A DNA stretch of 64,000 nucleotides from Burkholderiales bacterium (GTDB lineage: Bacteria; Pseudomonadota; Gammaproteobacteria; Burkholderiales; Eutrophovitaceae), in contig DASRFY010000211.1 of assembly GCA_035651315.1 (NCBI GenBank), positions 148 through 64,147 of the forward strand, written 5' to 3'. The position numbers and the translations under genes were made by a program. The notes under the pieces are model-generated. The model saw only the letters and a list, made by a program, of their open reading frames with translations. It was not told where the DNA came from and searched no databases. Shown in pieces: positions 3,312 to 30,965 of this stretch. Each line of letters begins with the position of its first letter. Within the stretch, counting starts at the first letter, position 1.

Positions 3312-4418
3312 CTACAGCGCCGGGCGAGCGAAGTAGCCGGTCAGCTCGAGATAGCCGAGCCCCGCGATGCGACCGTTTTCCAGCGCGCGCACCGCGCCTT
3401 CCCAGTACACGGTGCCAGTGCTGGCGCGGGCATCGAGCTCCTGGTCGTCCATCAACGGCTGCAGGAGGAATACCCGGTCGCCCGCGCGCAGCCGCATCGC
3501 GACCGGATACTGCGCATTCGTGCGCGGCGAGCGCCAGCGGCGCAAAGCCTCGAACGCGATGTTTCGGCTCGACAGCCGGCGCACCCGACCCGCGGGCTCG
3601 CGCAGCGTGCCGGCCGCCCACAGCGTGGCGCCGTCCCGCGCGCGAATGCGGAATGCCATCAACGCGCCGCCGTCGCTCAAGTTGACGCCGGTCCAGTCCC
3701 AGCCCGCCGCTTCTGGCGCAAGGTATTCGCTGGACCATTCGTGATCGAGCCATGCCTGCCCTGCGACGCGCAGCCGCCTACCTTCGATCTCGATCTGCCC
3801 GCTCACCGCGAGGTGCGGGCGGCTGTAGTAATAGCTCGCCTGCGCCGGCTTGCGCCCTTTCCGGCTGTAGCCGGCCTCGCCCTGCAGCAGGATCGGCTGC
3901 GTGGCCTCGAAGCGCAGATCGAGCGTGAATTCGCGCGCCGCGACGCGGGCGAGATAACGCTCGCCTTCGCGGCGCAGCCGCCAGTCGCCGATGCGCACGT
4001 CGGTGTCGTTCTCCCGCGCGTAGGCAAGGCCGAACCCCTCGCGCGCCGCGCGCTGATCGTGGCGCAGCCGGCCGGCGCGAGGATCGGCGATCGCCGCGTG
4101 CGCGAACAAGAGCTGCTTCGGGGCGAACGCAGACGGATTGTCTTCCTGCACGCCCGGCCGGCTGCGGAAGAACGTGACCTGGAAGCCGAACTCGCTTCCT
4201 CCTTCGTCCCGCAGCCAGCCGGTGACGTACCACCACTCGGTGCGAAAGGCGGAGTGCGCGCCGTCGTCGCGCGGAAATTCCAGCCGGTATCCCGGCCGCA
4301 CCTCGGGAAAGTCTGCGCCTTTTCCGGTCGAAGGCCAAAGAAAGGAGAAACACAACGCAAAGCCCGCAAAGGAGCGCAAAGGTCGCAAAGAAAGGCAAGA
4401 TTTTGGAATGAACGTCAA
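3312..4418 (-). CDS. Lipocalin-like / CrtC (hydroxyneurosporene synthase)-like, AttH-like protein
   Basis: Motif DDGAHSAFRTEWWYVTGWL is typical of the AttH/CrtC lipocalin-like family. The gene lies immediately downstream of FtsX-type ABC genes. The only in-frame start upstream of the signal-like region is TTG at 4418, so the start is uncertain. Confidence 0.7.
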   Translation of the reverse strand: MTFIPKSCLSLRPLRSFAGFALCFSFLWPSTGKGADFPEVRPGYRLEFPRDDGAHSAFRTEWWYVTGWLRDEGGSEFGFQVTFFRSRPGVQEDNPSAFAPKQLLFAHAAIADPRAGRLRHDQRAAREGFGLAYARENDTDVRIGDWRLRREGERYLARVAAREFTLDLRFEATQPILLQGEAGYSRKGRKPAQASYYYSRPHLAVSGQIEIEGRRLRVAGQAWLDHEWSSEYLAPEAAGWDWTGVNLSDGGALMAFRIRARDGATLWAAGTLREPAGRVRRLSSRNIAFEALRRWRSPRTNAQYPVAMRLRAGDRVFLLQPLMDDQELDARASTGTVYWEGAVRALENGRIAGLGYLELTGYFARPAL

Positions 4419-4570
4419 TGCAGCGGCCTGTTATTGCATCGGAGCGTCAACAGGTCAATGTTGTCAGGTATTGCCATCGGTACGCGGGTGACGCCCGGAA
4501 ACATCTCCGTTTTCCCTGTTTACCTTTGCGACCTTTGCGCTCCTTTGCGACCTCTGCGTCCTGCTTTTGT
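4351..4570. repeat. Element A: long inverted repeat built from tandem CGCAAAG heptamers
   Basis: Perfect 26-bp arms at 4365-4390 (cgcaaaggagcgcaaaggtcgcaaag) and 4524-4549 (exact reverse complement), with a 133-nt spacer. The left arm holds 4 CGCAAAG copies at 4356, 4365, 4375 and 4384. An imperfect 10-bp outer extension spans 4355-4364 / 4550-4559. Confidence 0.85.
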
Positions 4571-7776: not shown

Positions 7777-7865
7777 CCGCGGATCATAACGCTTCGTCCG
7801 GCGGCGCCGCTCTCGCGCCGCGCAACCGCGGCGCGCGGCGCCTTGCAAAGCGCTGCTATACTCGC

Positions 7866-7982
7866 GGCTCCTTGGGGAGTAGCCGCCCTCCGGTGTCGTG
7901 GAGGGGGATGCGTCAACACACTCGACCTGGCGGTCGTGGCGCATCCGGCGCCGCAGCGCGGGCATGGCGAGACCAATGGCAG
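7866..7982 (+). promoter_or_regulatory. yybP-ykoY (manganese) riboswitch candidate
   Basis: Conserved blocks are present in the right order: cuuGGGGAGUAGcc (7871-7884), a CCCUCC/GGAGGG hairpin, GUCAACACA (7912-7920), and GGCGAGACCaaugg (7966-7979) closing P1 against ccuugg. It sits upstream of a UPF0016/GDT1 gene, a known riboswitch-regulated family. Confidence 0.65.
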
Positions 7983-8056
7983 CAGCGCCGGCTCGGGGCT
8001 CGGGCGGCGGTGCTCTGCCATCGGTCCACCGCTGCCCAGCCCACCGCATCCTGTTC

Positions 8057-9468: not shown

Positions 9469-11061
<1,593 letters not shown>

Positions 11062-14433: not shown

Positions 14434-14448
14434 AAAGCGGAACATCAA

Positions 14449-14722
14449 CGCCTCAACGCAGTGGCGCAGAATCCAAATCCACTTCTCAACGCAGAGGCGC
14501 AGAGGACGCAGAGTTCGCAGAGGAAAATCGGGAATGAAATGTGTGGACAGCAGATCGTCGGACTTGAACATGGAGAAGCGCATTTGAGCACATCCGCGTC
14601 GACTGCCAATGCAAGACAAGGCCAATGCTTACACCCTATCTCTTCCACATAGCACGACTGTGGCTCCGGTATCGAGTTCTTTCTCTGCGAACTCTGCGTC
14701 CTCTGCGCCTCTGCGTTGAGAT
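14449..14722. repeat. Element B: long inverted repeat built from tandem CGCAGAG heptamers
   Basis: Perfect 38-bp arms at 14485-14522 (ctcaacgcagaggcgcagaggacgcagagttcgcagag) and 14683-14720, with a 160-nt spacer. CGCAGAG copies at 14490, 14498, 14507 and 14516. An unpaired partial copy of the arm start (ctcaacgcagtggcgcaga) lies at 14451-14469. Confidence 0.9.
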
Positions 14723-14743
14723 TTCGATGTTAGGAGTTAATTC

Positions 14744-16764: not shown

Positions 16765-17463
16765 TCAGGCCAGATCGAAAAGCAGCACCTCCGCCCGGCG
16801 GCCGTTGTCGATCGCGATGCGCCGCTCGCCGGTCGCCCCGAGCGCATCGCCGGCGGCAAGTGCCTTGCCATTGACTGCGGCTTCGCCGCGAGCAACGTGA
16901 ACATACGCGCGGCGGCCGGGCGCGATCTCGTGCTCGACCCGTTCTTCTCCGTCGACCAGCGCCGCGTAGAGGCAAGCATCCTGGTGAATCTTCACCGAGC
17001 CGTCGCCCCCATCGGGGGAGGCGAGCAGCCGCAACCTGCCGCGCTTTTCCGCGGGGTCGAAATACTTCTGCTCGTAGCTCGGCGCGATCGAATAGACCGC
17101 GGGCTCGATCCAGATCTGCAGAAAGTGCACGAGATCCCGTTGCGAGGGGTTGTATTCGCTGTGGAACACGCCGGTTCCGGCGCTCATGCGCTGCACATCC
17201 CCCGGCCGGATCACCGAGCCGTTGCCCATGCTGTCGCGGTGTTCGAGCGCCCCGTCGAGCACGTAGCTGATGATCTCCATGTCGCGATGCGGGTGCTTGT
17301 CGAAACCGGCGCCCGGCGCGACGCGGTCCTCGTTGATGACGCGCAGCGCGCCGAAGCCCACGTGGCGAGGGTCGTAGTACCCGGCAAACGAAAAGGTATG
17401 GAAGCTCCGCAGCCAGCCGTGGTCTGCAAAGCCCCGTTCGCCGCTCCTGCGAAGTTCGATCAT
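16765..17463 (-). CDS. Pirin family protein
   Basis: 232-aa bicupin with the pirin metal site HPHRDMEIISYV and FHSEYN. Confidence 0.9.
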   Translation of the reverse strand: MIELRRSGERGFADHGWLRSFHTFSFAGYYDPRHVGFGALRVINEDRVAPGAGFDKHPHRDMEIISYVLDGALEHRDSMGNGSVIRPGDVQRMSAGTGVFHSEYNPSQRDLVHFLQIWIEPAVYSIAPSYEQKYFDPAEKRGRLRLLASPDGGDGSVKIHQDACLYAALVDGEERVEHEIAPGRRAYVHVARGEAAVNGKALAAGDALGATGERRIAIDNGRRAEVLLFDLA

Positions 17464-17608
17464 ATTGACCTCATTTCTCCTTTCAGTCCGATCCGCAACT
17501 AAAGCAGGGGCAATATATGATTCAAGTACAAGATGTACAAGAATAATTATTGGAATGTATTATTCAATTTATCTGAATGTTTCAAGTGCACTCCGGCAGG
17601 AATTGGAC

Positions 17609-17767
17609 TCAAGTCATCGCGGGCGCGAGCGCGCAAAGCTTGAAATTGGCAAAGTCGATCAGCGACTCCGGCGACAGATAGGCGCGCAGCGCGAGTACGG
17701 TGAGCGCGAGACAGATGAGCGCGAGCACGACCCACCAGAGCGCGGATCGCCAGCCCGGCGCGATCAC
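17609..17767 (-). CDS. Candidate small membrane protein translationally coupled to the MFS gene (MFS small-subunit-like)
   Basis: 52 codons. GTG (17765-17767) overlaps the MFS TGA (GTGA) and GGAGG lies 10 nt upstream. There is one clear TM helix (ALWWVVLALICLALTVLAL). It appears only as the tail of the over-long ORF 17609..18967. Confidence 0.45.
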   Translation of the reverse strand: MIAPGWRSALWWVVLALICLALTVLALRAYLSPESLIDFANFKLCALAPAMT

Positions 17768-19197: not shown

Positions 19198-22100
19198 CTA
19201 CAGCTCCTTGAGATCCTTGTGCGGCGCGGACAGCGCGCCGCTGCCGCCGGAAGCGGCGCCGGCCGGCAACGAAATCGCTTCTTCGTCTTCCAGGCTGGGC
19301 AGATGCACCCTGCGCACCAGGAGCGAATACACGGTCGGGATGACGAACAAGGTCAACAGCGTGCCGAAGGTCAGCCCCCCCACGACCACCCAGCCGATCG
19401 CCTGGCGCGATTCCGAACCCGCGCCGTGCGCGAGCGCGAGCGGGACCGCACCCAGCACCATCGCCGCAGTGGTCATCAGAATGGGGCGCAGCCGCAGCGT
19501 CGCCGCCTCCACCACCGCCTCGAACTTCTCCATTCCCTTGGCGCGCAACTGGTTGGCGAATTCCACGATCAGGATGCCGTGCTTGGTGATCAGGCCGACC
19601 AGCATCACCAGGCCGATCTTGGAATACACGTTGAGCGTGCCGCCGTGATCGAACTTGGCATTGATCCACATGGTGAGCAGCGCGCCCATGAACGCGAGCG
19701 GCACGGTGAACATGATCACGAACGGGCCGACGAAGCTCTCGAACTGCGCGGAGAGCACCAGGTAGATGAACACCAGCGCCAGCACCAGCGTGAACCAGAG
19801 CTGGCTGCCCGCCTCGCGGAACTCGCGCGACACCCCGTCGAGGTCGGTGCGCACTTCCTCCTGCAGCTCGCTCTTCACCAGACCGTCGATGTGATCGAGC
19901 ACCTGGCCCAGGCTGTAGCCCGGCCCGACGTTGGCGTTGATGACCGCGGCGCGCAGCTTGTTGAAGTGGTTGAGCTCCTTCGGCGCCACCGTCTCCTGCA
20001 GGCTGACCAGGTTGGACAACTGCACCAGATCGCCGCTCGCGCTGCGCACGTAGATGGAGGTGAGGTCGCTGGGCTGCATGCGTTTCGCGTCCTCCATCTC
20101 CACCACCACGTCGTACTGCTTGCCCTCGTGCTTGTAGCGCGTCGTGTCGCGCCCGCCGAGCAGGGTCTCCAGCGTGTGCCCGATCGCTTCCATCGACACG
20201 CCGACCGCCGAGGCCTTGTCGCGGTCGATGCGTACCGCGAGCTGCGGCTTGTTGAGCTTCAGGTCGGTATCCAGTCCGGTGACGCCGGGATACTGACTGA
20301 GCTTGGCCATCATCTTGTTGACGTAGCCCTGCAACTCCTCGTACGTGTTGCCGTAGATGACGTACTGCACCTGCTTGTCCAGGAAGCCCTGTCCCAGCGA
20401 CGGCGGATTGAGCGCGAAGGAAAGCGCCCCCGGCAGGCCGCCGTAGAGCTTGGGCGTGAGCTCCTTGGTAATCTGCTGCTGCGAGCGCTTGCGCTCGTCC
20501 CAGGGCTTCAGCACCGCGAAGGCGATGCCAAGGTTCACCGGGTTCGGACGATCCAGACCCGGCGCCACCACCGCGAACATGGTGTCGATCTCGGGAATGC
20601 CCTTGGCGATGCCCTCGACCGCGTGCATGTAGCTGTCGGTGTACTGCATGGTCGAGCCTTCCGGCGTCACCACGAAAGCGAGAAAGATGCTGCGGTCCTC
20701 GACCGGCGACAGCTCGTCCTTGAGCTGGGAGAACAGCCAGATCATCCCGGCGGCGACCGCCGCGAACAGGGCGCCGACGACCCAGCGGTGGCGCAGGCTC
20801 GCCCGCAGCACCGCCCGGTAGCCGTTGTTCATGCCCTCGAAAAAGGGCTCCGTCTTCTCGTAGACCCAGCCGTGATCGCCGGTCTTGAACAGCCTCGAGC
20901 ACATCATCGGCGTCAACGTCAGCGCGACGAAGCCGGACACGATTACCGAGGTCGCGACGGTCAGCGCGAACTCGGTAAAGAGCTTGCCGGTGTTGCCGGT
21001 CATGAACGAAAGCGGCGTGAACACCGCCGCCACCGTCACCGTCATCGCGATCACCGCGAAGCCGATCTCGCGGCTGCCGATCAGCGCCGCCTTGACGGGC
21101 TTCATGCCCTGCTCGATGTGGCGGTGGATGTTCTCCAGCATGACGATCGCATCGTCCACCACCAGGCCGATCGACAGCACCACGCCGAGCAGGGTCAGCG
21201 TGTTGATCGAGAAGCCGAGCGCCTTGAGGAAGGTGAAGTGGCCGATGATCGACACCGGGATCGCCACTGCCGGAATCAGGGTGGCCCGGGCGCTGCGCAG
21301 GAAGACGAGGATCACCAGCACCACCAGCGTCAGCGCCTCGAAGATGGTACGGTAGACGGCCTTGATCGATTCCTCGATGAAGATCGAGGTATCCACGGCG
21401 ACCCACGCCTTCATGCCCGGGGCGAGCGAGGCCTGCAGGCGAGGCAGCAGCGCCTTGACGCTTCGGGCCACCTCGAGGGTGTTGGCCGTGGACTGCTTGA
21501 CGACCCCCAGTCCCAGCGCCTCGTTGCCGCCGACGCGCACGATCTTTCGGTTCTCGTAGGGGCCGGGAGCGGCGTAGCCCACGTCCTTCAGCCGGATCGG
21601 GTAGCCGTTCACCGTCCGGATGATCATGTTGTTGAATTCCTCTGGCGACAGCAGGTCGGTGCGCGGCTGCACGGTGAATTCGCGCTGGTTGCTTTCGATG
21701 CGCCCGCCCGGCGAATCCAGGTTCTGAGCGTACAGCGCGTCCTCGACGTCCTGCACGGTCAGGCCCTGGGCCGCGAGGCGCTCGCGGTCCAGCCAGACGC
21801 GCATCGAATACTTGCGCTCGCCGCCGATGATCACCGAGGAAACGCCGGGCAGCGCCTTCAGCGGGTCGGTGAGATAGCGATCGGCGAAGTCGGTCAGTTC
21901 CATCGGCGAATGGCGGTCGCTGATGATGGCGATCCAGAGGATCGGCTGCGCGTCGGCCTCGATCTTCGACACCACCGGCTCGTCGGAGGTCTGGGGCAAC
22001 TGCTTGCGGATGCGCGCGACCCGGTCGCGCACGTCGGCGGCAGCGGCATCCACGTCGCGCCCGGTGAAGAAGGTGATGGTGATCTGGCTCACCTCTTCCC

Positions 22101-22353
22101 GGCTCTGCGACTTGATGGTCTTGATGCCTTCGATCCCGGAGAGCGAATCCTCGAGCGGCTGGGTGATGGCGCTTTCCATCACCTGCGCGGTCGCGCCCTT
22201 GTACACCGTGCGCACCGACACCACCGGCGGGTCGATGTTGGGGTACTCGCGCACTGCCATGCGGGTGAACGACAAATAGCCGACCAGGACGATGAGCAGG
22301 CTCATCACCGTGGCCAGCACCGGGCGTTTGATCGAGATGTCCGATAGAACCAT
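19198..22353 (-). CDS. RND efflux permease (HAE-1, AcrB/MdtB-like)
   Basis: 1051 aa. Has the N-terminus SDISIKRPVLATVMSLLIVL and 12-TM/2-loop RND topology. Confidence 0.9.
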   Translation of the reverse strand: MVLSDISIKRPVLATVMSLLIVLVGYLSFTRMAVREYPNIDPPVVSVRTVYKGATAQVMESAITQPLEDSLSGIEGIKTIKSQSREEVSQITITFFTGRDVDAAAADVRDRVARIRKQLPQTSDEPVVSKIEADAQPILWIAIISDRHSPMELTDFADRYLTDPLKALPGVSSVIIGGERKYSMRVWLDRERLAAQGLTVQDVEDALYAQNLDSPGGRIESNQREFTVQPRTDLLSPEEFNNMIIRTVNGYPIRLKDVGYAAPGPYENRKIVRVGGNEALGLGVVKQSTANTLEVARSVKALLPRLQASLAPGMKAWVAVDTSIFIEESIKAVYRTIFEALTLVVLVILVFLRSARATLIPAVAIPVSIIGHFTFLKALGFSINTLTLLGVVLSIGLVVDDAIVMLENIHRHIEQGMKPVKAALIGSREIGFAVIAMTVTVAAVFTPLSFMTGNTGKLFTEFALTVATSVIVSGFVALTLTPMMCSRLFKTGDHGWVYEKTEPFFEGMNNGYRAVLRASLRHRWVVGALFAAVAAGMIWLFSQLKDELSPVEDRSIFLAFVVTPEGSTMQYTDSYMHAVEGIAKGIPEIDTMFAVVAPGLDRPNPVNLGIAFAVLKPWDERKRSQQQITKELTPKLYGGLPGALSFALNPPSLGQGFLDKQVQYVIYGNTYEELQGYVNKMMAKLSQYPGVTGLDTDLKLNKPQLAVRIDRDKASAVGVSMEAIGHTLETLLGGRDTTRYKHEGKQYDVVVEMEDAKRMQPSDLTSIYVRSASGDLVQLSNLVSLQETVAPKELNHFNKLRAAVINANVGPGYSLGQVLDHIDGLVKSELQEEVRTDLDGVSREFREAGSQLWFTLVLALVFIYLVLSAQFESFVGPFVIMFTVPLAFMGALLTMWINAKFDHGGTLNVYSKIGLVMLVGLITKHGILIVEFANQLRAKGMEKFEAVVEAATLRLRPILMTTAAMVLGAVPLALAHGAGSESRQAIGWVVVGGLTFGTLLTLFVIPTVYSLLVRRVHLPSLEDEEAISLPAGAASGGSGALSAPHKDLKEL

Positions 22354-22379
22354 GGCGCCCCCTCCTCAGGCCGGGCCCC

Positions 22380-23621
22380 TCAGCCCGCCTTTTTCTCCGT
22401 TTGCGCCGGCATGCCGCCCGGCGCCGCAGGTGCGGCCGGCTGCGCGCCCATGACCATCACGGGCGCACCGTCCTTGAGCTTGATCTGCCCGTCGGTGACG
22501 ACCACGTCTTTGTCGCCCAGTCCGCTGGTCACCTCGACCTCGCCCGGCCGGCGCACGCCTAGCTCGATCTTGGTGAGCACGGCCTTGCCGTCGACGACGC
22601 GGAACACGAAGGCATCTCGGCCCTGCGGCCAGATCGCCTGCTCCGGAATGACGATGGCCTTGGGCCGGACATCCAGGGTGAGGCCCACGCGCACGAACAT
22701 GCCAGGCTTGAGCTTGCCGTTGCGATTCGGCACCCGCGCGCGCATCAGGACCGTGCGCGTCTTTTCGTCCACCGCCGGCTCGACGGCATAGACCCGGCCC
22801 CGGAACTCCTCGTTCGGATACGCATCCAGTCGCACCGCGACCTCCTGGTTGGGGCGGACCTTGGATAGAAAGACTTCGGGGATGCGGAAATCGAGCTTGA
22901 TCGAGCTCACGTTGTCCAGGCGCACGATGTTGTCGCCCGCCTTGACGTAGGCGCCGGGGCTTACTTCGCGCAGCCCCAGCGTGCCGGAGAACGGCGCGCG
23001 GATCACCGTCTTGGCAAGTTTAGCGCGCGCTTCGTCGGCGCGCGCCTTGAGCCGCTCCACCGAGCCGAGCTGCACATCCAGCGCCTCCTTGCTGATGAAC
23101 TTCTGCTGGAAGAGCTCTTGCGCGCGCTGGTAGCGTTGCTGTTCGGTGCGCAAGTCGGCTTCGATTGCCGCGAGCTGCGCCTCGTATTCGCTGCTGTCGA
23201 TGGTGACCAGCTTCTGGCCGGCCCCCACCGCCTGCCCTTCCTGGAACGGCAAGGCAGTGATGCGGCCGTCGATCTCGGGGCGGATGACGACGGATTCCTC
23301 GGCCAGCAGCGACCCGACGGCGGAAACCTCGTCTGCAACCTTGGTCACCTTGACCGGCGTGGCGCGCACCGGCAACCCCATCGGCTTGGCGGGAGTCTGG
23401 GCTTGCGAGGCGGGCGGCTGCGCGGCAGGCTTGGCCTGCTGCGCGTTGGCATCGTTCTTCGAGCCGCATCCGGACGCAAGCAGGACCCCGCACAGGAGCA
23501 AAGGCGGACCGAAAAGGGAAGTGCGCGAGCTGAGCAACAAAGGAATACTCCTCAATCGTCCGGAGTGCGAGGCGCCGTCGCGAAAGAAAGGCATCCTTCC
23601 CGCTGCATTCGCGTGGCGCAC
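22380..23621 (-). CDS. RND efflux periplasmic adaptor (MFP), lipoprotein
   Basis: Lipobox LLASGC followed by HlyD/MFP barrel-sandwich and coiled-coil regions. The start is ambiguous between 23621 and 23594. Confidence 0.85.
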   Translation of the reverse strand: MRHANAAGRMPFFRDGASHSGRLRSIPLLLSSRTSLFGPPLLLCGVLLASGCGSKNDANAQQAKPAAQPPASQAQTPAKPMGLPVRATPVKVTKVADEVSAVGSLLAEESVVIRPEIDGRITALPFQEGQAVGAGQKLVTIDSSEYEAQLAAIEADLRTEQQRYQRAQELFQQKFISKEALDVQLGSVERLKARADEARAKLAKTVIRAPFSGTLGLREVSPGAYVKAGDNIVRLDNVSSIKLDFRIPEVFLSKVRPNQEVAVRLDAYPNEEFRGRVYAVEPAVDEKTRTVLMRARVPNRNGKLKPGMFVRVGLTLDVRPKAIVIPEQAIWPQGRDAFVFRVVDGKAVLTKIELGVRRPGEVEVTSGLGDKDVVVTDGQIKLKDGAPVMVMGAQPAAPAAPGGMPAQTEKKAG

Positions 23622-23679
23622 CGGCGGGCGATCCGGACCAGTGCCAACGGTTGAGACAAGGTATTGGTTTGTTTTGTTT

Positions 23680-23695
23680 CTGACTATTTAGTCAG
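23680..23695. promoter_or_regulatory. LysR-type binding site candidate (dyad CTGACT-N4-AGTCAG)
   Basis: A perfect 6-bp dyad sits in the AT-rich 115-bp divergent region between the RND operon and the LysR gene, and fits the T-N11-A LysR box. Confidence 0.4.
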
Positions 23696-23736
23696 TTATT
23701 TGCCGCGCATGATAAACGACTTTTGATTTCCGGACC

Positions 23737-24669
23737 ATGAAAATTTCTCTGGACGCGCTCGCGGTCCTGGATGCCATCGTGCGCAACGGCAGCTTCGCCG
23801 CGGCCGCCGAAGAACTGCACCGCGTGCCCTCGGCGATCACCTACACCGTGCAAAAGCTGGAACAGGACCTGGGCGTGAAGCTGTTCGACCGCGGCCGCCA
23901 ACGCGCCCGGCTGACCAATGCCGGCGAAGAGCTGCTGCGCGAGGGCAGATTCCTGCTGCGGGCGGCCGCCGATCTCGAGTGCCGGGTACAGCGGGTCGCC
24001 ACCGGCTGGGAGTCCGAACTGCGCATCGCGGTGGAAGACATCGTCCCGGTCGAGAAGCTGTTTGCGCTGCTGAAGGAGTTCTATCGCCAAAACGCGGGCA
24101 CGAGAATCAGGCTGTCCGCCGAGATCCTCGGCGGCTGCTGGGATGCGCTGCTGTCCGGCCGTGCCGACCTGGCGATCGCCGCCCCGGGCGAGGTGCCGCC
24201 GGAGGCGTCGATCGCAGTCGAGCCCATGGGGCAGTTCGAGTTCGTGTTCGTCGTCGCGCCCGATCATCCGCTGGCACAGGCGCGGGAACCGCTCGCCGCC
24301 AGCGACCTGCTTGCGCACCGCGCCGTGCCGGCGGCGGATACTTCGCGCTTGCTCCCGCCGCGCAGCTCGGGGCTCGTCGAGGGCCAGGACACGCTGACCG
24401 TCCCCAACATGCGCGCCAAGCTGGCGGCGCAGATCGCGGGGCTGGGTGTGGGTTTTCTTCCGCTCAAATGGGCCGAACCCCATGTCAAGGCCGGGCGCCT
24501 GGTGCGCAAGGAAGTCGAAGGAAACAAGGCGGCCGCGAACGTCTTTCTGGCGTGGCATCCGCGGCAGGCGGGGAAAGCGCTTGACTGGTTCCTCGCGCGG
24601 CTGCGCGAGCCCAACATGCGCGCCTATCTGCTGGGCGAGGCCGCGTACCCTGGCGGGCGCGAAACCTAG
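23737..24669 (+). CDS. LysR family transcriptional regulator
   Basis: N-terminal wHTH (FAAAAEELHRVPSAITYTVQKLEQDLGVKLF) plus a LysR substrate-binding domain. Divergent from the RND operon. Confidence 0.9.
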   Translation: MKISLDALAVLDAIVRNGSFAAAAEELHRVPSAITYTVQKLEQDLGVKLFDRGRQRARLTNAGEELLREGRFLLRAAADLECRVQRVATGWESELRIAVEDIVPVEKLFALLKEFYRQNAGTRIRLSAEILGGCWDALLSGRADLAIAAPGEVPPEASIAVEPMGQFEFVFVVAPDHPLAQAREPLAASDLLAHRAVPAADTSRLLPPRSSGLVEGQDTLTVPNMRAKLAAQIAGLGVGFLPLKWAEPHVKAGRLVRKEVEGNKAAANVFLAWHPRQAGKALDWFLARLREPNMRAYLLGEAAYPGGRET

Positions 24670-25183: not shown

Positions 25184-28100
25184 TCAGGCGGTCGAGCGCC
25201 GCGCCTGCCCGCTTCGCGGCTGGAAGCGCCCGAAGTGCAGAAGCACGGTCGGCAGGACGAGCAGATTGAGTATCGTGGAAGTCGCCAGTCCGCCGACGAT
25301 GATGATCGCCATCGGCCCCTCGATTTCCCGCCCCGGCTCACCCGAGCCGACGGCGAGCGGCAGCAGCCCGAGCCCGGTCACCAGCGCGGTCATCAGGATG
25401 GACGGCAATCGCTCCGCGGCGCCGCGCAGCGCGGTTTCCAGCCCCCACGGCGCGCCCTCGGCTTCGACCAGATACTGATAGTGCGACACCAGCATGATGG
25501 AGTTGCGCAGCGTGATGCCGAACAGGGTGACGAATCCCACCAGCGAGCCCAGCGAGAGCCAGCCGCCGGTGCCGAGCACCGCGATCACCCCGCCGATCAG
25601 AGCGAACGGCAGATTGAGGAAGGTGATGACGAGGTTGTGCAGGCTGTTGAACGCGAGGTAGAGCAGCAGGAAGATGCCTACGCTCGCCAGCAGAGAATGC
25701 GCGACGAGATCGGTGCGCGCCTGCCGCTGTGCCGCGGCGGTGCCGCTCACCACGACGTAGTCGCCCGGCGAAAGCCGCACCTGCTTCGCGATCTGCCGGC
25801 TTGCATCCTGCTCGAAGGCCTGCAAGTCGCGGCCGTCGACATCGGCGGTCACGGTCTGGATGCGCCTTCCTCCCGAATGCAGCACCTTGTAGCGCCCGCC
25901 GGTCACTTCGATGTCGGCGACGTCGGACAGCCGCACCAGCCTGCCGTCCGGATTACGCATGGTGAGCCACCCCACCTGCGCAATGCTGTCGCGGATGCGC
26001 GGCGGCAGCACGACGACGAGATCGATCACCTGGGTGCCGCGGTAGATCTGGCCGACGGTTGCGCCCTCGTAAGCGGCGTGGACGGCCGCGAGCGCGGCCG
26101 CCGGCGTGAGCCCGAGCGCAGTCACGCGCTCGGGACGCAGCCGTACCGTGAGCTGCGGCGTGCCGGGCGGCGCCTGCAGCTGCACGTCCCGCGCGCCGGG
26201 AACCGCGGAAAGCGAAGACGCCACCGCCAGCGCGTCGCGGTCGAGCGCGTCCAGATTGGCGCCGTACAGGTTCACCACCAGCGGCGCCGCGTAGCCGCTG
26301 ATCGTCTCTTCGATGCGCTCGGTGAGGAAGGTATTGACCGCGAATGCCACGCCGGGAAAGCCGGCGCCGCGCGCGCCGGAGAGCGTGGCGCGGATTTCGT
26401 CCAGGATGCGCGCCTGCTCGGCTCCCCCCAGCGAGCCGATCTCGACCTCGAATTCGCTGTAGTGCGTGCCGAAGGTGTCGGCGCCGTTCTTCGAACGTCC
26501 GACCCATTGGGCGACCGTTTTCACGCCCTTGACCGACAGGATCGCTTCGGAGACGCGCCGGCCGATGCGCAGCGACTCGGCCTCCGAGGTGCCGGGCACC
26601 GCGGTCATGTGGATGATGTAGTGGCCTTCACGCAGCGCCGGGATGAACTCGCCGGAAAACAGCGGCAGGATGCCGATCCCGGCCGCGATCACCACGAATA
26701 CGGCGCCGACGATGCGGCCCGGATAGCGTTCGATCCGCCGCAGCAAGGCGAGATAGCGCGGCTTGAGCCACGCCACTGCGGGCGGATCGGTGGACTTCAG
26801 TTCGCTGCGCGCGAGCAGCAGGTAGCACAGCGCGGGCGTGAGCGTCACCGCCACCAGCAGCGATGCGAGGATGGCGAAGATATAGGCCATTCCCAGCGGG
26901 GCGAAGAGCTTGCCCGCGACGCCGGAGAGCGTGAGCAGCGGCACGAATACCAGGGCGACGATGAAGGTGGCATAGACGACCGAGCTGCGCACCTCGACCG
27001 AGGCATCGAGCACCACTTCCTGCGCCGGCCGCGGCGCCGCCGAGGCACGGTTCAGGCGCAGCCGCCGGAAGATATTCTCGGTGTCGATGATGGCGTCGTC
27101 GACCACTTCTCCGAGCGCGATCGCGAGCCCGCCCAGTACCATGACGTTGAGCCCCACGCCGAAATGGTCGAGCACCAGCACCGCCGTGAGCAGCGACACC
27201 GGGATCGCCAGCGTGCAGATGAACGCGGTGCGGGTGTTGAACAGGAACAGGAACAGCACCAGCACCACCAGCACCGAGCCGACCACGATGTCGCGCCGCA
27301 CGTTGGTGACCGCGGTCTCGATGAAGTTGGCGGGACGGAACAGCTCGGCGTGCAGGGTGACCTGCTCCTTCTCGAGCAGCGGTCCCAGCTCCTCCAGCGC
27401 GCGCTCCAGCTCCTGGGTCACCGCGTGCGTGTTGGCCCCGAGCTGGCCCTGCACCATCATGAATACGCCCGGCACGCCGTCGATCGCCGCCGCGCCGATC
27501 GACGGCGCCGGCCCCTCGGTCACTTCGGCGACGTCCGAAATGCGCACCGCCTGCCCCGCGCGATAGACCAGTATCACGCGCCCGACGTCCCCGATCGCGT
27601 GCGGCTGGGCGTCGGTCTGCACGATGATCTGCTGATTGGGCGTCTTCACGAATCCGGTGCCCGCCATCCCGGCCGCGCCGCGTGCCGCGGCCGCCACGTC
27701 CTCGATGGAAAGCGCGTAGCCGCGCAGCCGTTCCGGATCGACCTGGATCTGCCACTGGCGCACGTCGCCGCCGAACACGTTCACCTCCGCCACGCCCGGC
27801 ACCGCGAGCAGATGCGGGCGGATGGTCCAGTCGGTCAGCGTGCGCAGCTCCATCAGGCTGCGCGTCTTCGACGTGATGCCCACGCCGAGCACGGTGCTGG
27901 CGGAGGAAGTCAGCGGCGTCATGGTCGGCGGCGCGACTCCGCGCGGCATCTGCCCGGCGAGCACCGCGAGCCGCTCGTTGACCACCTGGCGGTTGCGGTA
28001 GGTGTCGGAGCCGTCCCGGAAGAACACGTGCACCACCGACAGGCCGGGGATCGATTGCGAGCGCAGCGACTCCAGCCCGGTCACGCCGCCGAGCGCGCTT

Positions 28101-28309
28101 TCGATCGGCTGCGTGACCAGCGTCTCCACCAGTTCCGCGGAAAGCCCCGGAGCCTCGGTCTGGATCACGACCTGGCTGGGGGAAAACTCCGGGAACACGT
28201 CGAGGTTGGCGCGAAACAACGTGTACAGGCCGTAGGCGATCAGGGTCGCCGCGAGCGCGACAACTACGCCCGCGTAGCGGATGGAAAACCGGACGATCGC
28301 TGCGATCAT
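25184..28309 (-). CDS. Heavy-metal-efflux RND permease (CusA/CzcA family)
   Basis: 1041 aa. The N-terminus MIAAIVRFSIRYAGVVVALA and overall HME-RND conservation (LDVFPEFSPSQVVIQTEAPG) support the call. Confidence 0.9.
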   Translation of the reverse strand: MIAAIVRFSIRYAGVVVALAATLIAYGLYTLFRANLDVFPEFSPSQVVIQTEAPGLSAELVETLVTQPIESALGGVTGLESLRSQSIPGLSVVHVFFRDGSDTYRNRQVVNERLAVLAGQMPRGVAPPTMTPLTSSASTVLGVGITSKTRSLMELRTLTDWTIRPHLLAVPGVAEVNVFGGDVRQWQIQVDPERLRGYALSIEDVAAAARGAAGMAGTGFVKTPNQQIIVQTDAQPHAIGDVGRVILVYRAGQAVRISDVAEVTEGPAPSIGAAAIDGVPGVFMMVQGQLGANTHAVTQELERALEELGPLLEKEQVTLHAELFRPANFIETAVTNVRRDIVVGSVLVVLVLFLFLFNTRTAFICTLAIPVSLLTAVLVLDHFGVGLNVMVLGGLAIALGEVVDDAIIDTENIFRRLRLNRASAAPRPAQEVVLDASVEVRSSVVYATFIVALVFVPLLTLSGVAGKLFAPLGMAYIFAILASLLVAVTLTPALCYLLLARSELKSTDPPAVAWLKPRYLALLRRIERYPGRIVGAVFVVIAAGIGILPLFSGEFIPALREGHYIIHMTAVPGTSEAESLRIGRRVSEAILSVKGVKTVAQWVGRSKNGADTFGTHYSEFEVEIGSLGGAEQARILDEIRATLSGARGAGFPGVAFAVNTFLTERIEETISGYAAPLVVNLYGANLDALDRDALAVASSLSAVPGARDVQLQAPPGTPQLTVRLRPERVTALGLTPAAALAAVHAAYEGATVGQIYRGTQVIDLVVVLPPRIRDSIAQVGWLTMRNPDGRLVRLSDVADIEVTGGRYKVLHSGGRRIQTVTADVDGRDLQAFEQDASRQIAKQVRLSPGDYVVVSGTAAAQRQARTDLVAHSLLASVGIFLLLYLAFNSLHNLVITFLNLPFALIGGVIAVLGTGGWLSLGSLVGFVTLFGITLRNSIMLVSHYQYLVEAEGAPWGLETALRGAAERLPSILMTALVTGLGLLPLAVGSGEPGREIEGPMAIIIVGGLATSTILNLLVLPTVLLHFGRFQPRSGQARRSTA

Positions 28310-28318
28310 GAATAACGA

Positions 28319-28478
28319 TTAACCACAGAGACTCAAAGACACAGAGAAAATCCGGATTAACCACCAAGGCACCAAGGAAATCGTAAAAGTTGTTCCTGAG
28401 TTTCTTGGTGTCTTTTGTGCCTTAGTGGTGATATATCGCTTTGGAAGTTCTCTGTGCCTCTGTGTCTCTGTGGTTCTA
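28319..28478. repeat. Element C: nested inverted repeats built from CACAGAG and CACCAAGG tandem units
   Basis: Outer arms 28321-28348 / 28448-28475 match at 25/28 and share aaccacagagac and cacagagaa. Inner arms 28359-28380 / 28401-28430 (accaccaaggcac vs accactaaggcac) are imperfect. The central loop is about 20 nt. Confidence 0.85.
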
Positions 28479-28488
28479 TGGTTGGTAT

Positions 28489-29556
28489 TCAGTCTTCATT
28501 CTCGTTTCTGATCTGGAACTTGAGTTCCTCGGACAGCAGCAGCTGCGCGCCGCTCACCACCACCTCGTCGCCTTCTTTCAGCTCGCCGCCTGCGTCGAAC
28601 CAGCCCCCGGCCAGCTCGCGCGAGGCGGAAATCGAATAGCGCGCGAAGATGTCGTCGTCCGCGCGCACGTACACCCACGGTTTGCCCGCGTGCCAGACCA
28701 CCGCCTCGCTGGGAACGATGACGCCGCGACGCTTGCCCGATCCGGTCCCGACCCGCGCCGCCACGCGCGACCCTACCCGCAGATCGGCGCCGTCGACCAG
28801 GTAAAAGAAGGTCTGCCCGGGCAGCGCGCCTTCTACCTGCGGCGCGTCGGAGACGAAACGGGCCGGCCGCGGTTTTGCCGCGCCGATCACCGGCGCGACC
28901 GAAAACTGCGAGCGGACGACCGTGCGGGGCAGGCCGTACGGAAAGGCGAGCTGGACCAGATGCGCTTCGCGCCGGAGCAGTCGCTGCAGGACCGCGGACT
29001 CGGGTCTGCTCGCCCAGCCCGCGATCGTCGGGCCCCAGGCGGTGCGCAACGTGTCGTATTGCGCCTCCACGTTCGCCTGCGCCGCGGCGGCCTGCGCGGT
29101 CTCGGCGCGATAGCGCGCTTCGGCATTGCGCAGCGCCTGCTCCGACGCGTTGCGCTCGTCGCGATACAGCGCCTGCGTGCGGCGATACTCGGCCTCCGCC
29201 GCCGCCGCGGTGGCGCGCCGCGCCCCCGCCTCGGCCGCCGCGGCCAGATACCGGCCGCGCGCCTCGAGCAGGGGCTGGATGTTGACCACGGTACCGTAGA
29301 CCTCGGTGACGTCGGCGGTTTCCGCGGCGGCGAGCGGCCGCGTGGCGATGCCGCTCGCCTTCTGGCTCTGCACAGACACGCGCACCACAGCCCGCCCGCC
29401 CTCGCTGCCGGCGCCGGAAGGCGTCTCGATGCTCGCCTGGCGCGAACCGGCCGCGGGCCGGATTTCGTCGCGCGCGAAAAACACGAGCGCCCAGGACAGC
29501 GCGGCGATGACAAGTGCCATTGCCGCGATCAGGATCTGCGTCGCGTTCGGCCTCAT
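28489..29556 (-). CDS. Efflux RND periplasmic adaptor (MFP) with N-terminal membrane anchor
   Basis: 355 aa starting MRPNATQILIAAMALVIAALSWALVFF. The ATG at 29554-29556 overlaps the OMP stop (ATGA). Has an Ala-rich coiled-coil hairpin and a C-terminal beta-barrel region. ORF 28489..30762 is a fused over-extension. Confidence 0.8.
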   Translation of the reverse strand: MRPNATQILIAAMALVIAALSWALVFFARDEIRPAAGSRQASIETPSGAGSEGGRAVVRVSVQSQKASGIATRPLAAAETADVTEVYGTVVNIQPLLEARGRYLAAAAEAGARRATAAAAEAEYRRTQALYRDERNASEQALRNAEARYRAETAQAAAAQANVEAQYDTLRTAWGPTIAGWASRPESAVLQRLLRREAHLVQLAFPYGLPRTVVRSQFSVAPVIGAAKPRPARFVSDAPQVEGALPGQTFFYLVDGADLRVGSRVAARVGTGSGKRRGVIVPSEAVVWHAGKPWVYVRADDDIFARYSISASRELAGGWFDAGGELKEGDEVVVSGAQLLLSEELKFQIRNENED

Positions 29557-30965
29557 CTGCCGCCTTCGGAATCCGCGACCGGCGGGAGCGGGCCGAGCGC
29601 GCCCAGAATTGGCCGCTGCAGCGCGTCTTCCAGCGCGGCGATCGCCCGCAGACGCGCGATACCCGCCTCGCGCTCCCGGTCCTGCGCCGCCAGCGCGGAC
29701 AGCCGCGCGGCGGTCAAATCCATGCGATCGGCGCCGCCCGCCGCGAACAGCTTTTCCACGCGCGCGAACTGGGCGCGCGCAAGCTCGGCCTGCCTTGCCG
29801 CCGCCTCGGATACCGCGCGCGCGGATTGCGCGCGCGTGAACGCCTGGCCGGTTTCCCCGATCACGGCGACTTGTTGCGCCTCGAAGACCCGTGCCGCAAG
29901 CTCGCGCCGGGCCTGCGCCTCGCGCACCAGGGCCTGGGCGCGGGATCCGGTCGGGAGAACGATATTCGCGGCGAGCGACCAGACGTTGTCGCCCTGGTCC
30001 CACAGATAGCCCGGCGAGAGGGAAAGCTCCGGATACTGCGATGCCACCGCGAGCTTGACCTCCGCATCGGCGGCGCCGAATTCGAGCAGGCGGCGGCGCA
30101 CGTCGAGACGATTGCGCAGCGCGAGCGCTCGCGCCCGGCTCGGCTCCGTCACCGCATCGGCGGGCGCGAAAGGCTCGTCCGCCACGGCAATGCGTTGCGC
30201 CGTGTCCTGCGGCAGGCCGAGCGCCTGCGCAAGCCGGGACTGGGCTTCCTGCACGCGCGCCCGCTCGAACGCGACGCCGGATTCGACCTCCCCGAGGGCG
30301 AGGTCTTCCTGCCCCAGGTCGCGCGACGACATCGCGCCCAGCTCCACGCGCCGCATCACCAGCGCGCGCATCTGGGCGCGCGCGGCGAGCCTCGCCTCCA
30401 GCGCCGCGAGGCGACGGCGCGCGTCCAGCAGGTCGATCAGGCTGTCGCGTACCCAGGCGCGCGCGCGCCACACCGCTTGCGCGACGTCGAGCTGTGCGGC
30501 CTCGTCGAGCATCGAGGCGCGCTCGGCACGCGCCTCGCGCCGGCCCGTCGTCACCCAGGGCAGTTCCAGCGCGACTCCGACGCTCCACGGCTGCGAAGGC
30601 TCGAGCCCGTTGCTGTGGTGCTCGACAAGTGGCTGCACGCCGAACGGCGGCCGCTGCGCGGCGGTGTTCAGTTCGGCGCGCGCCACCGCCGCCTGACCGC
30701 GGGCGACCCTCACCTCGGTGCTGAAATAGATCGCCGCAAGGGAAAGCTCCTCCAGCCGCCACTGCGCCGGCGGCCAGCTTCCCGCGTAACCGGCGCCGGC
30801 GGCGAACTGCGCGAGACCGGGCGCGGATTCGCTGCGCTCGCCAAAAGCGCGCGCGGAAGCTTCCGCGTCAATGGGCCGGGCCTGGTACGGCACGGGAGCG
30901 CAAGCGCACAGCCCCGCCGCGCACAGCGCGACCAGCCATAGCCCCGGGCGGCGCTCCGAGCACAT
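29553..30965 (-). CDS. Outer-membrane efflux protein (TolC/CusC family lipoprotein)
   Basis: 470 aa. Signal and lipobox-like region LVALCAAGLCAC, with the duplicated OEP repeat structure. Confidence 0.85.
   Translation of the reverse strand: MCSERRPGLWLVALCAAGLCACAPVPYQARPIDAEASARAFGERSESAPGLAQFAAGAGYAGSWPPAQWRLEELSLAAIYFSTEVRVARGQAAVARAELNTAAQRPPFGVQPLVEHHSNGLEPSQPWSVGVALELPWVTTGRREARAERASMLDEAAQLDVAQAVWRARAWVRDSLIDLLDARRRLAALEARLAARAQMRALVMRRVELGAMSSRDLGQEDLALGEVESGVAFERARVQEAQSRLAQALGLPQDTAQRIAVADEPFAPADAVTEPSRARALALRNRLDVRRRLLEFGAADAEVKLAVASQYPELSLSPGYLWDQGDNVWSLAANIVLPTGSRAQALVREAQARRELAARVFEAQQVAVIGETGQAFTRAQSARAVSEAAARQAELARAQFARVEKLFAAGGADRMDLTAARLSALAAQDREREAGIARLRAIAALEDALQRPILGALGPLPPVADSEGGR

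Follow-up and report, generated by a model that had tools for sequence, protein, structure and literature searches.

Nested ORF-less copies of a dispersed, probably mobile hairpin repeat fill an adaptor–RND pump junction in a Burkholderiales genome

Repetitive extragenic palindromic sequences (REPs) alter mRNA stability and, when they lie near a stop codon, translation of the upstream gene, as for the malE-malF REP. The intervening sequences (IVSs) of rRNA have complementary ends that form a long stem, and RNase III excises them from the RNA. IVSs of 23S rRNA, for example that of Coxiella burnetii, are described in PMC4990558 as selfish insertions with a small open reading frame (ORF). According to PMC3733652, REPs are single imperfect palindromes of 20–40 bp with a GTAG or CGTC tag. 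Repeats resembling miniature inverted-repeat transposable elements (MITEs), such as Correia/NEMIS, ERIC and RUP, are non-coding, shorter than 300 bp, and have terminal inverted repeats that form long stem-loops in transcripts; Correia RNA is a substrate of RNase III, and ERIC alters the stability of flanking mRNA (PMC2229807). For Geobacter metallireducens, Aklujkar et al. 2009 (PMC2700814) describe paired sites, placed on opposite strands and a variable distance apart, that fall into three classes: class 1 (24 pairs) has four tandem GTTGCTYN units, class 2 (21 pairs) three tandem TCTCCGTS[Y] units, and class 3 (8 pairs) five tandem MTYCTGA units. One pair lies between proB and proA, sites occur at 3′ and 5′ gene ends and within operons, and the authors read them as putative IHF/HU sites, predicted to bind a global regulator. 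Here, we describe a palindromic element, element C, in a 64,000-nt stretch of a Burkholderiales bacterium (contig DASRFY010000211.1, positions 148 to 64,147; hereafter, the window), where it lies between the adaptor gene and the resistance-nodulation-division (RND) pump gene of an efflux operon. Element C is a discrete, dispersed palindromic repeat with sharp boundaries that was gained at this junction and that carries a second copy in its loop. We consider it probable that element C represents two nested, ORF-less copies of a mobile, hairpin-forming repeat similar to REPs and MITEs.

Element C is a 155-nt palindrome (28321–28475) that occupies the 179 nt separating the adaptor stop codon (28489–28491) from the RND ATG (28309). 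A preliminary description of the window had drawn it as one hairpin nested in another, each with its own 8-mer and together filling this gap, and arm alignment and folding confirm that architecture. Of the 28 positions in the outer arms (28321–28348 and 28448–28475), 25 are complementary; the other three are one T/A and two A/G mismatches, and both A/G differences give G-U pairs on the minus strand, as had been claimed. An inverted-repeat search extends these arms to 33 nt at 85%. Within the outer loop, the inner arms (28360–28378 and 28411–28429) match at 84% over 19 nt. The outer arms consist of CACAGAG units at 8-nt spacing, three on each side, and the inner arms of two and three CACCAAGG units. 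The earlier reading of the inner arms as a different 8-mer, present twice on one side and as three degenerate units on the other, also holds: CACCAAGG occurs twice on one side, facing CACTAAGG, CACAAAAG and CACCAAG. All five copies of CACAGAG in the window fall within element C, and the GC content of 28300–28499 is 42%, compared with 67% for the window. Both palindromes have the same type of end: the outer one runs from AACCACAGAG at 28321 to CTCTGTGGTT at 28475, and the inner one from ACCACCAAGG at 28360 to TAGTGGT at 28429. The parts of the element, and the spacers that separate it from the genes, including that to an RND start codon lacking a Shine-Dalgarno (SD) sequence, are:

28321–28475, no strand assigned: outer palindromic element, ORF-less; ends AACC-ACAGAG...CTCTGT-GGTT, CACAGAG(N) units
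28321–28353, no strand assigned: outer left arm; CACAGAG, CTCAAAG and CACAGAG units, then AAAATCC; helices at 28321–28332 and 28334–28348
28443–28475, no strand assigned: outer right arm; three CTCTGTG units, with reverse complement CACAGAGACACAGAGGCACAGAG, a 23-mer also found in locus L002
28360–28429, no strand assigned: inner element of the same family, in the outer loop; ACCACCAAGG...CCTTAGTGGT, 13-bp helix
28476–28488, minus strand: 13-nt spacer from the adaptor stop codon to the base of the outer stem
28310–28320, minus strand: 11-nt spacer from the outer stem to the RND ATG, without an SD

Element C has the terminal inverted repeats and small size that are used as MITE criteria. The GTAG/CGTC tag of REPs was not found on it; its ends are ACC...GGT and its arms are tandem units. 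A blastn search of element C against plasmids gave no match.

Folding of the minus-strand RNA of 28295–28495, the mRNA strand, gave −77.3 kcal/mol, compared with −42.2 ± 4.3 kcal/mol for shuffled sequences (z −8.2). The plus-strand RNA gave a z of −7.4, and none of 200 shuffles reached the energy of the element. Refolding with longer flanks left only the outer helix of 12 + 15 bp and the inner helix of 13 bp as robust. Pairing between the adaptor stop codon and the RND start codon at the stem base shifted with flank length, and we dropped it as a robust feature. In the longer-context fold, the RND start lies in a 7-bp local hairpin, AUGAUCG-CAG-CGAUCGU (28293–28309, minus strand). An Rfam search of 28250–28550 with an E-value threshold returned just weak, chance miRNA-like matches, far below threshold. 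Neither a promoter nor a terminator was predicted in the adaptor–RND gap, and no U-tract follows the stem.

The design of element C is shared by a large family. Each arm comprises 2–4 tandem units of 8–9 nt (CRCNRAG plus 1–2 nt), the two arms of an element form an inverted pair with the purine-rich version 5′, and ACC...GGT marks the ends; the elements span 60–300 nt with variable loops. The sequence CACAGAGNCACAGAGNCACAGAG is present in at least 120 metagenome contigs with GC contents of 0.33–0.75. Among the matches listed, 67 have an inverted partner within 420 nt and ends of the form (TTC)ACCACAGAG...CTCTGTGGT(GAA), with loops of 15–190 nt that are unrelated between contigs. Identical CACAGAG arms across such different GC contents suggest either horizontal spread or a sequence-level constraint. 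Two contigs, L098 and L109 (L-numbers denote the loci and contigs compared), have CACAGAG units outside and CACCAAGG units inside, the same nesting as element C, and L145 has CGCAGAG-type units nested inside. The two different 8-mers of element C can thus be explained by insertion of one family member into the loop of another. Other units (CATTGAG, CACGAAT, CGCAGAT) make up further elements of these contigs, and extra tandem-unit copies occur in L019, L025 and L049. The commonest extension beyond the first unit was ‘AC’, in 17 of 63 elements, with ‘GC’ in 5 of the 63. L185 has two copies separated by 7 kb; their identity of ~88% is confined to the stretch from ACCACAGAG to CTCTGTGGT, outside which the sequences are unrelated. 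Arms and units are alike within a copy and different between copies; our guess is that replication slippage and template switching in quasi-palindromes account for this. A crude assessment of context placed 29 of 53 elements between co-directional genes, with 15 at convergent and 9 at divergent gene pairs, and many of the 53 start 1–36 nt behind a stop codon. Direct repeats at the boundaries of 63 elements were at the level expected from shuffled sequence, so we saw no sign of target-site duplication; nor was any seen at L185 or in a comparison of L017 with L015. A full-text literature search for the arm sequences found none.

The preliminary description implied a dedicated regulatory device at this junction. 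We compared the junction in 29 close loci. The distance from adaptor stop to RND start ranges from 0 to 238 nt among orthologues, and tandem-unit elements occupy the junction in 10 of the 29, with differing units:

CACAGAG: L002, L049
CACAGAG/CACCGAG: L033
CGCCAAG: L003, L007, L019, L021
CGCAAAG: L014, L025
CACGGAG: L017

Other junctions are empty, with gaps of 3–20 nt (L012, L015, L022, L027–L031, L036). In L004, L006, L009 and L010, the gap, which lies before position 10001, holds REP-like paired hairpins of the form CCCTCTCC-loop-GGAGAGGG, flanked by CACCCC/GGGGTG. Contig L005 begins (1–43) within a CTTTGCG arm 20 nt ahead of the RND start, and contig L011 begins (1–194) in a CCCTCTCC/GGAGAGGG REP-like pair; that these contigs from metagenome-assembled genomes (MAGs) start in repeats upstream of the RND gene is consistent with assembly breaks at multi-copy arms. 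In a Methylobacillus MAG (L040, 3745–3982), the same junction holds a 238-nt near-perfect palindrome with a minimum free energy of −149 kcal/mol. A further hairpin, conserved as approximately TCNTCGTTTCGGTGGAGACT-hairpin-GTCGNAGCCAAAATGA, occupies the junction in L037 (3562–3699), L006, L042, L050, L058, L079 and L080; apart from L006 and L079, these loci are mostly labelled Methylophilaceae (Methylotenera, Methylophilus). RNAalifold gives this hairpin 20 pairs, 8 of them with compensatory changes; it finds no match in Rfam and could act as a true cis-regulatory RNA for these pumps.

Placed on a tree of the RND genes, the junction types are patchy and sister loci are unlike. L015 is empty (an 11-nt gap), whereas its sisters L017 and L007 carry CACGGAG and CGCCAAG elements, respectively; L003 has an octamer element and L006 other repeats; and L002 has CACAGAG units where L021 has CGCCAAG. 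L015, with TGA-AACGGCTGTAG-atg, and L017, with TGA-[ACCACGGAG...CTCCGTGGT]-TAACCGGCTTTAG-atg, differ by a clean insertion directly behind the stop codon. The orientation of an element is given only by an internal motif, GAGAAAAYCCGGA, beside one arm, and this motif runs antisense to the operon in the window but in the sense direction in L002. The exact 23-mer CACAGAGACACAGAGGCACAGAG is nevertheless common to the window and L002 despite the opposite orientation. The patchy types, the differences between sisters and the flip in orientation argue for repeated gain and replacement rather than for a conserved regulatory hairpin. For 13 elements of known transcription sense, sense and antisense RNAs fold equally well with similar G-U counts, which gives no sign of selection on one RNA strand. 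We also looked in these 13 elements for a bias of G-U over A-C between strands as a mark of RNA-level selection, and found none. A candidate orientation signal, that the purine-rich arm always comes first, was dropped, since the palindrome is identical on both strands. Given that the family is dispersed in unrelated loci and phyla, and that the element is present, absent or replaced among close relatives, the implied regulatory device is not supported. It is odd that the junction is filled much more often than other intergenic regions of these loci, and by unrelated kinds of palindrome; either this site is preferentially targeted or a hairpin confers some benefit there.

Two long-loop elements with CACAGAG arms, in L126 and L166, enclose a GxxExxY gene (TIGR04256, E ~1e-43; Pfam PDDEXK_3). 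We sampled further GxxExxY genes irrespective of their flanks, from sources that included plasmid records and viral contigs. Clear tandem-unit inverted arrays surround about 9 of 12 GxxExxY genes, from several phyla. Most of the arrayed genes sit in the loop of one hairpin, and they are often wedged into conserved operon junctions:

L126, 3182–3712: gene in loop, CACAGAG arms
L166, 5103–5556: gene in loop, CACAGAG arms
L202, 562–998 (Sphingomonas parapaucimobilis): between fabD and fabG, arms TTCACGCGAAGGCGCGAGGACGCGA / TCGCGTCTTCGCGGCTTCGCGTGAA
L203, 554–1004 (Bernardetia): CACAGAG-type arms
L204, 431–902 (Bacteroides finegoldii): radA / FAD protein junction, arms TTCACCACAGAGGACGCAGAGGACACGGAG / CTCTGTGACCTCTGTGTCCTCTGTGGTGAA in the array TTCACCACAGAGG...CCTCTGTGGTGAA
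L201, 394–1064 (Gemmatirosa): complete CGCAGAGG hairpin on each side
L207, 748–1260 (viral contig): flanking tandem-unit arrays
L208, 631–1296 (viral contig): complete hairpins on both sides
L209, 620–1304 (viral contig): AT-rich tandem units
Treponema plasmid record: single weak unit
Prevotella plasmid record: no arms
L172: weak arms only

GxxExxY was the only ORF found inside family members, and in 1.4 Mb of Burkholderiales loci no ordinary gene was bracketed by such arrays. PMC3424549 lists PDDEXK_3 among PD-(D/E)XK families whose function is unknown. GxxExxY had no PADLOC match and no sequence relative in the PDB, and a full-text literature search for GxxExxY, PDDEXK_3 and TIGR04256 found no paper describing these hairpins.

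The three best inverted repeats of the window all have the tandem-unit design and all lie between co-directional genes, so that the family accounts for three loci (four elements) in 64 kb. In addition to element C, these are:

4348–4566, no strand assigned: element A, CGCAAAGG units; between genes for a MacB/FtsX-type permease and a CrtC-like protein, both on the minus strand
14441–14731, no strand assigned: element B, CGCAGAGG units; fills the gap between genes for a BoxC-like enoyl-CoA hydratase (ECH) and a BoxB-like protein

Elements A and B both sit in gaps within operons, element A behind the permease gene, and element B has an additional, partial outer arm (14441–14470 / 14702–14731). 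The likeness among elements A, B and C is limited to their arms, and their loops contain neither an ORF nor a remnant of GxxExxY. Neither the window nor the 1.4 Mb of related Burkholderiales loci contains a GxxExxY gene. We therefore file element C as an ORF-less member of the family. A motif, GA(G)AAAAYC(C)GGRA, follows one arm in L019 (22772–22810), in the window (28346–28358 and 14519–14535) and in the gap of L002; it orients otherwise symmetric elements and suggests a local Burkholderiales subfamily. Two other intergenic stretches of low GC (45–50%), 17431–17661 and 23621–23781, are without tandem-unit arms. The latter is the divergent region between an operon for a CusB-like adaptor and an RND pump (19198–23621, minus strand) and an unannotated plus-strand ORF (23737–24669). 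Rfam, run also at the gathering threshold on the whole window, gave as its only real match a manganese (yybP-ykoY) riboswitch, RF00080, at 7862–8001 on the plus strand (57.4 bits; gathering threshold 45).

How does this family compare with the systems described above? The Geobacter sites, as PMC2700814 presents them, are likewise arrays of 3–5 tandem octa- or heptanucleotides on opposite strands, with dozens per genome. Reverse-complementing the class 2 unit TCTCCGTG gives the CACGGAGA unit found in L017 and L025, and the class 2 sites are therefore very probably members of the same family, judging from the published consensus and description. The difference lies in the reading: in that paper, the arrays are taken as IHF/HU sites instead of mobile repeats that form hairpins, and no link to GxxExxY is drawn. 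The paper also places two IS110-family insertion sequences (ISs), ISGme8 and ISGme9, at a fixed distance from class 1 sites, and tandem-octanucleotide repeats may serve as targets for other mobile elements. With REPs and the related BIMEs and REPINs, our family shares short, dispersed, multi-copy palindromes that lack target-site duplications and lie behind stop codons and within operons. It differs in having arms of tandem 8-nt units, ACC...GGT ends, sizes of 60–300 nt and variable loops, and in that the associated ORF encodes a PD-(D/E)XK protein, whereas that of REPs encodes a Y1 transposase (RAYT). Like MITE-like repeats, the family would be co-transcribed with neighbouring genes, and filled and empty sites are found among relatives. 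However, most of the families tabulated in PMC2229807 have target-site duplications and TA ends, whereas no such duplication was seen in our 63 elements. The arms are also internally repetitive, unlike those of MITEs. We know of no IS-type transposase with matching ends. The rRNA IVSs differ in that their ORF encodes an S23p/four-helix-bundle protein and that they are sited within rRNA; to our knowledge, tandem-unit arms are not documented for them.

Element C lies in an operon whose gene order, outer-membrane factor (OMF)–adaptor–RND, is kept in all 80 related loci:

25184–28309, minus strand: RND pump gene, ACR_tran, nearest CusA/CzcA; 640.9 bits, NCBI cutoff 701
28489–29556, minus strand: divergent periplasmic adaptor gene, resembling membrane fusion proteins (MFPs), 355 aa; NCBIfam RND_mfp, E 3e-9, below cutoff
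29553–30965, minus strand: OMF gene, first of the three; OEP domains

The gene assignments made earlier thus stand in part: the RND call holds, as CusA/CzcA-like although below cutoff, and the MFP call holds only roughly. The adaptor ORF is genuine only from 29556 (MRPNATQ...), its sub-threshold RND_mfp match spans the last 80 residues, and no Pfam match was found; its product is best called a divergent adaptor. The nearest RND proteins are 78% identical, and the close relatives are all MAGs of uncultured Burkholderiales or Betaproteobacteria. The ATG at 28309 is the first start codon in frame after a stop and aligns with the N-termini of 80 homologues, which supports the start site given before. 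No SD precedes it (ggttaatcgttattcATG), and it lies 11 nt from the outer stem, again as first described. The C-terminus of the adaptor, KFQIRNENED*, is conserved, and its coding sequence, AAGTTCCAGATCCGCAACGAGAACGAGGAYTGA, is near-invariant as DNA in L001–L033; the copy in the window (28489–28520, minus strand) reads GAATGAAGAC. In loci with gaps of 3–20 nt, the sole SD-like sequence for the RND gene is a GAGGA in these last adaptor codons. Sequence comparison therefore suggests that the pump is probably translated by coupling to the adaptor.

We propose that the CACAGAG copy would have landed first, in a short adaptor–RND spacer, and that the CACCAAGG copy would then have landed in the loop of the outer copy. 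Spread would occur at the DNA level, via a hairpin or cruciform, with a GxxExxY nuclease perhaps supplied in trans. The element would be co-transcribed with the operon and fold into an outer helix of ~27 bp and an inner helix of 13 bp. Folding would loop out ~155 nt, leaving the adaptor stop and the RND start ~24 nt apart, and this proximity would keep the RND gene, which lacks an SD, coupled to the adaptor by termination-reinitiation. Because a self-contained palindrome keeps the stop-start geometry, the insertion would be tolerated. If pump expression is affected at all, this is probably a side effect. Candidates are cleavage of the ~27-bp helix by RNase III, a barrier to 3′ exonucleases that would favour the upstream genes and message, and stalling of the terminating ribosome, since the stem begins 13 nt behind the stop. 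Liang, Rudd and Deutscher reportedly found in 2015 that REPs within 15 nt of a stop codon affect upstream translation, with ribosome stalling. Tentatively, as something possible rather than probable, we suggest that hairpins with tandem-octamer arms are a cross-phylum class of mobile element whose autonomous form encodes the GxxExxY nuclease; that they move without target duplication, via a hairpin or cruciform, and prefer short gaps behind stop codons and the loops of existing copies; and that ORF-less forms are kept at the adaptor–pump junction for tuning of the subunit ratio.

Four observations weigh against element C being a mobile repeat that simply landed here. With no target-site duplication, spread by classical transposition stays hypothetical, and its mechanism is one that we infer. 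Three of the 12 GxxExxY genes (L172, L205, L206) have weak arms or none. The lack of a GxxExxY gene in the window and in the 1.4 Mb of related loci leaves any mobilising partner in this lineage putative. Finally, about 1 in 3 close orthologues has an occupied junction, as against 3–4 elements in ~0.5 Mb for the other intergenic regions of the same loci, and this excess hints at targeting or selection rather than neutral landing. Selection is central to an explanation that we regard as unlikely, though far from negligible: that the hairpin, whatever its origin, has been domesticated and is selected for setting the adaptor:pump ratio, either by affecting how the mRNA is processed or how stable it is or by enforcing translational coupling, with different lineages using different palindromes. 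Related operons carry at least four unrelated kinds of strongly folding insert at this one junction (octamer-arm elements, CCCTCTCC/GGAGAGGG pairs, the Methylophilaceae motif with its 8 covarying pairs, and the L040 palindrome), the elements stand 0–17 nt behind the stop and 10–50 nt ahead of the start, and the occupancy by octamer-arm elements compares with ~1 per 130–170 kb elsewhere in the same loci. However, shared ancestry inflates the count, there is no preference for orientation or strand, and the many close relatives with empty junctions listed above manage with a gap of 3–20 nt. Moreover, short co-directional gaps behind stop codons are the usual home of the family, such that tolerance alone could yield the pattern.

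A dedicated cis-acting RNA switch, in which the state of the fold gates RND translation, would fit an RND gene without an SD, a very stable stem ending 11 nt ahead of its ATG, and a pump that depends on coupling, as the likely SD (GAGGA) in the last adaptor codons of short-gap orthologues indicates; in one folding context, the stop codon even pairs with the start region. We nonetheless think a switch improbable, since that pairing is lost with more flank, nothing beyond the family design is conserved at orthologous sites, sister loci lack the element, and the repeat also occurs between unrelated genes. No alternative conformer and no loop resembling a ligand pocket was seen, the loops are unrelated between copies, and there is no Rfam match. 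We give still less credence to the tandem units being protein-binding DNA arrays, for IHF/HU for instance, that act on supercoiling or transcription. This is how PMC2700814 reads the Geobacter arrays, the units keep a C-R-C-N-R-A-G skeleton, and recurrence of the exact 23-mer CACAGAGACACAGAGGCACAGAG across contigs of very different GC suggests a constraint on sequence. The IHF/HU proposal is, however, itself only a prediction, and an 8–9-nt period would place successive sites on different faces of the helix. The units also vary widely (CATTGAG, CACGAAT, CGCAGAT, AT-rich in L209) while the arms within an element always match, which argues for structure rather than for a fixed binding motif. That a very stable hairpin lies between two cistrons might also suggest an intra-operon terminator or attenuator that lowers RND transcription, but we consider this highly improbable: there is no U-tract, the terminator scan was empty, the stem greatly exceeds intrinsic-terminator stems in length, and the pump would be left promoterless, with no promoter match in the gap.

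On the reading that we favour, a dispersed, mobile repeat nested in a copy of itself, annotation of the hairpin as a metal-efflux riboregulator should await experiments. The family has seemingly been noticed once, in Geobacter, as sites for nucleoid proteins, although soil metagenomes commonly contain it and its range extends to Bacteroides. It is a source of many ‘structured’ intergenic regions that could pass for regulatory RNAs, and some MAG contigs that break at this junction are explained by it. The link to GxxExxY offers a testable function, as a nuclease for hairpin or cruciform DNA, for a widespread protein family of unknown role. Lastly, a single junction refilled by unrelated palindromes is a natural experiment on translational coupling and subunit stoichiometry in tripartite pumps.

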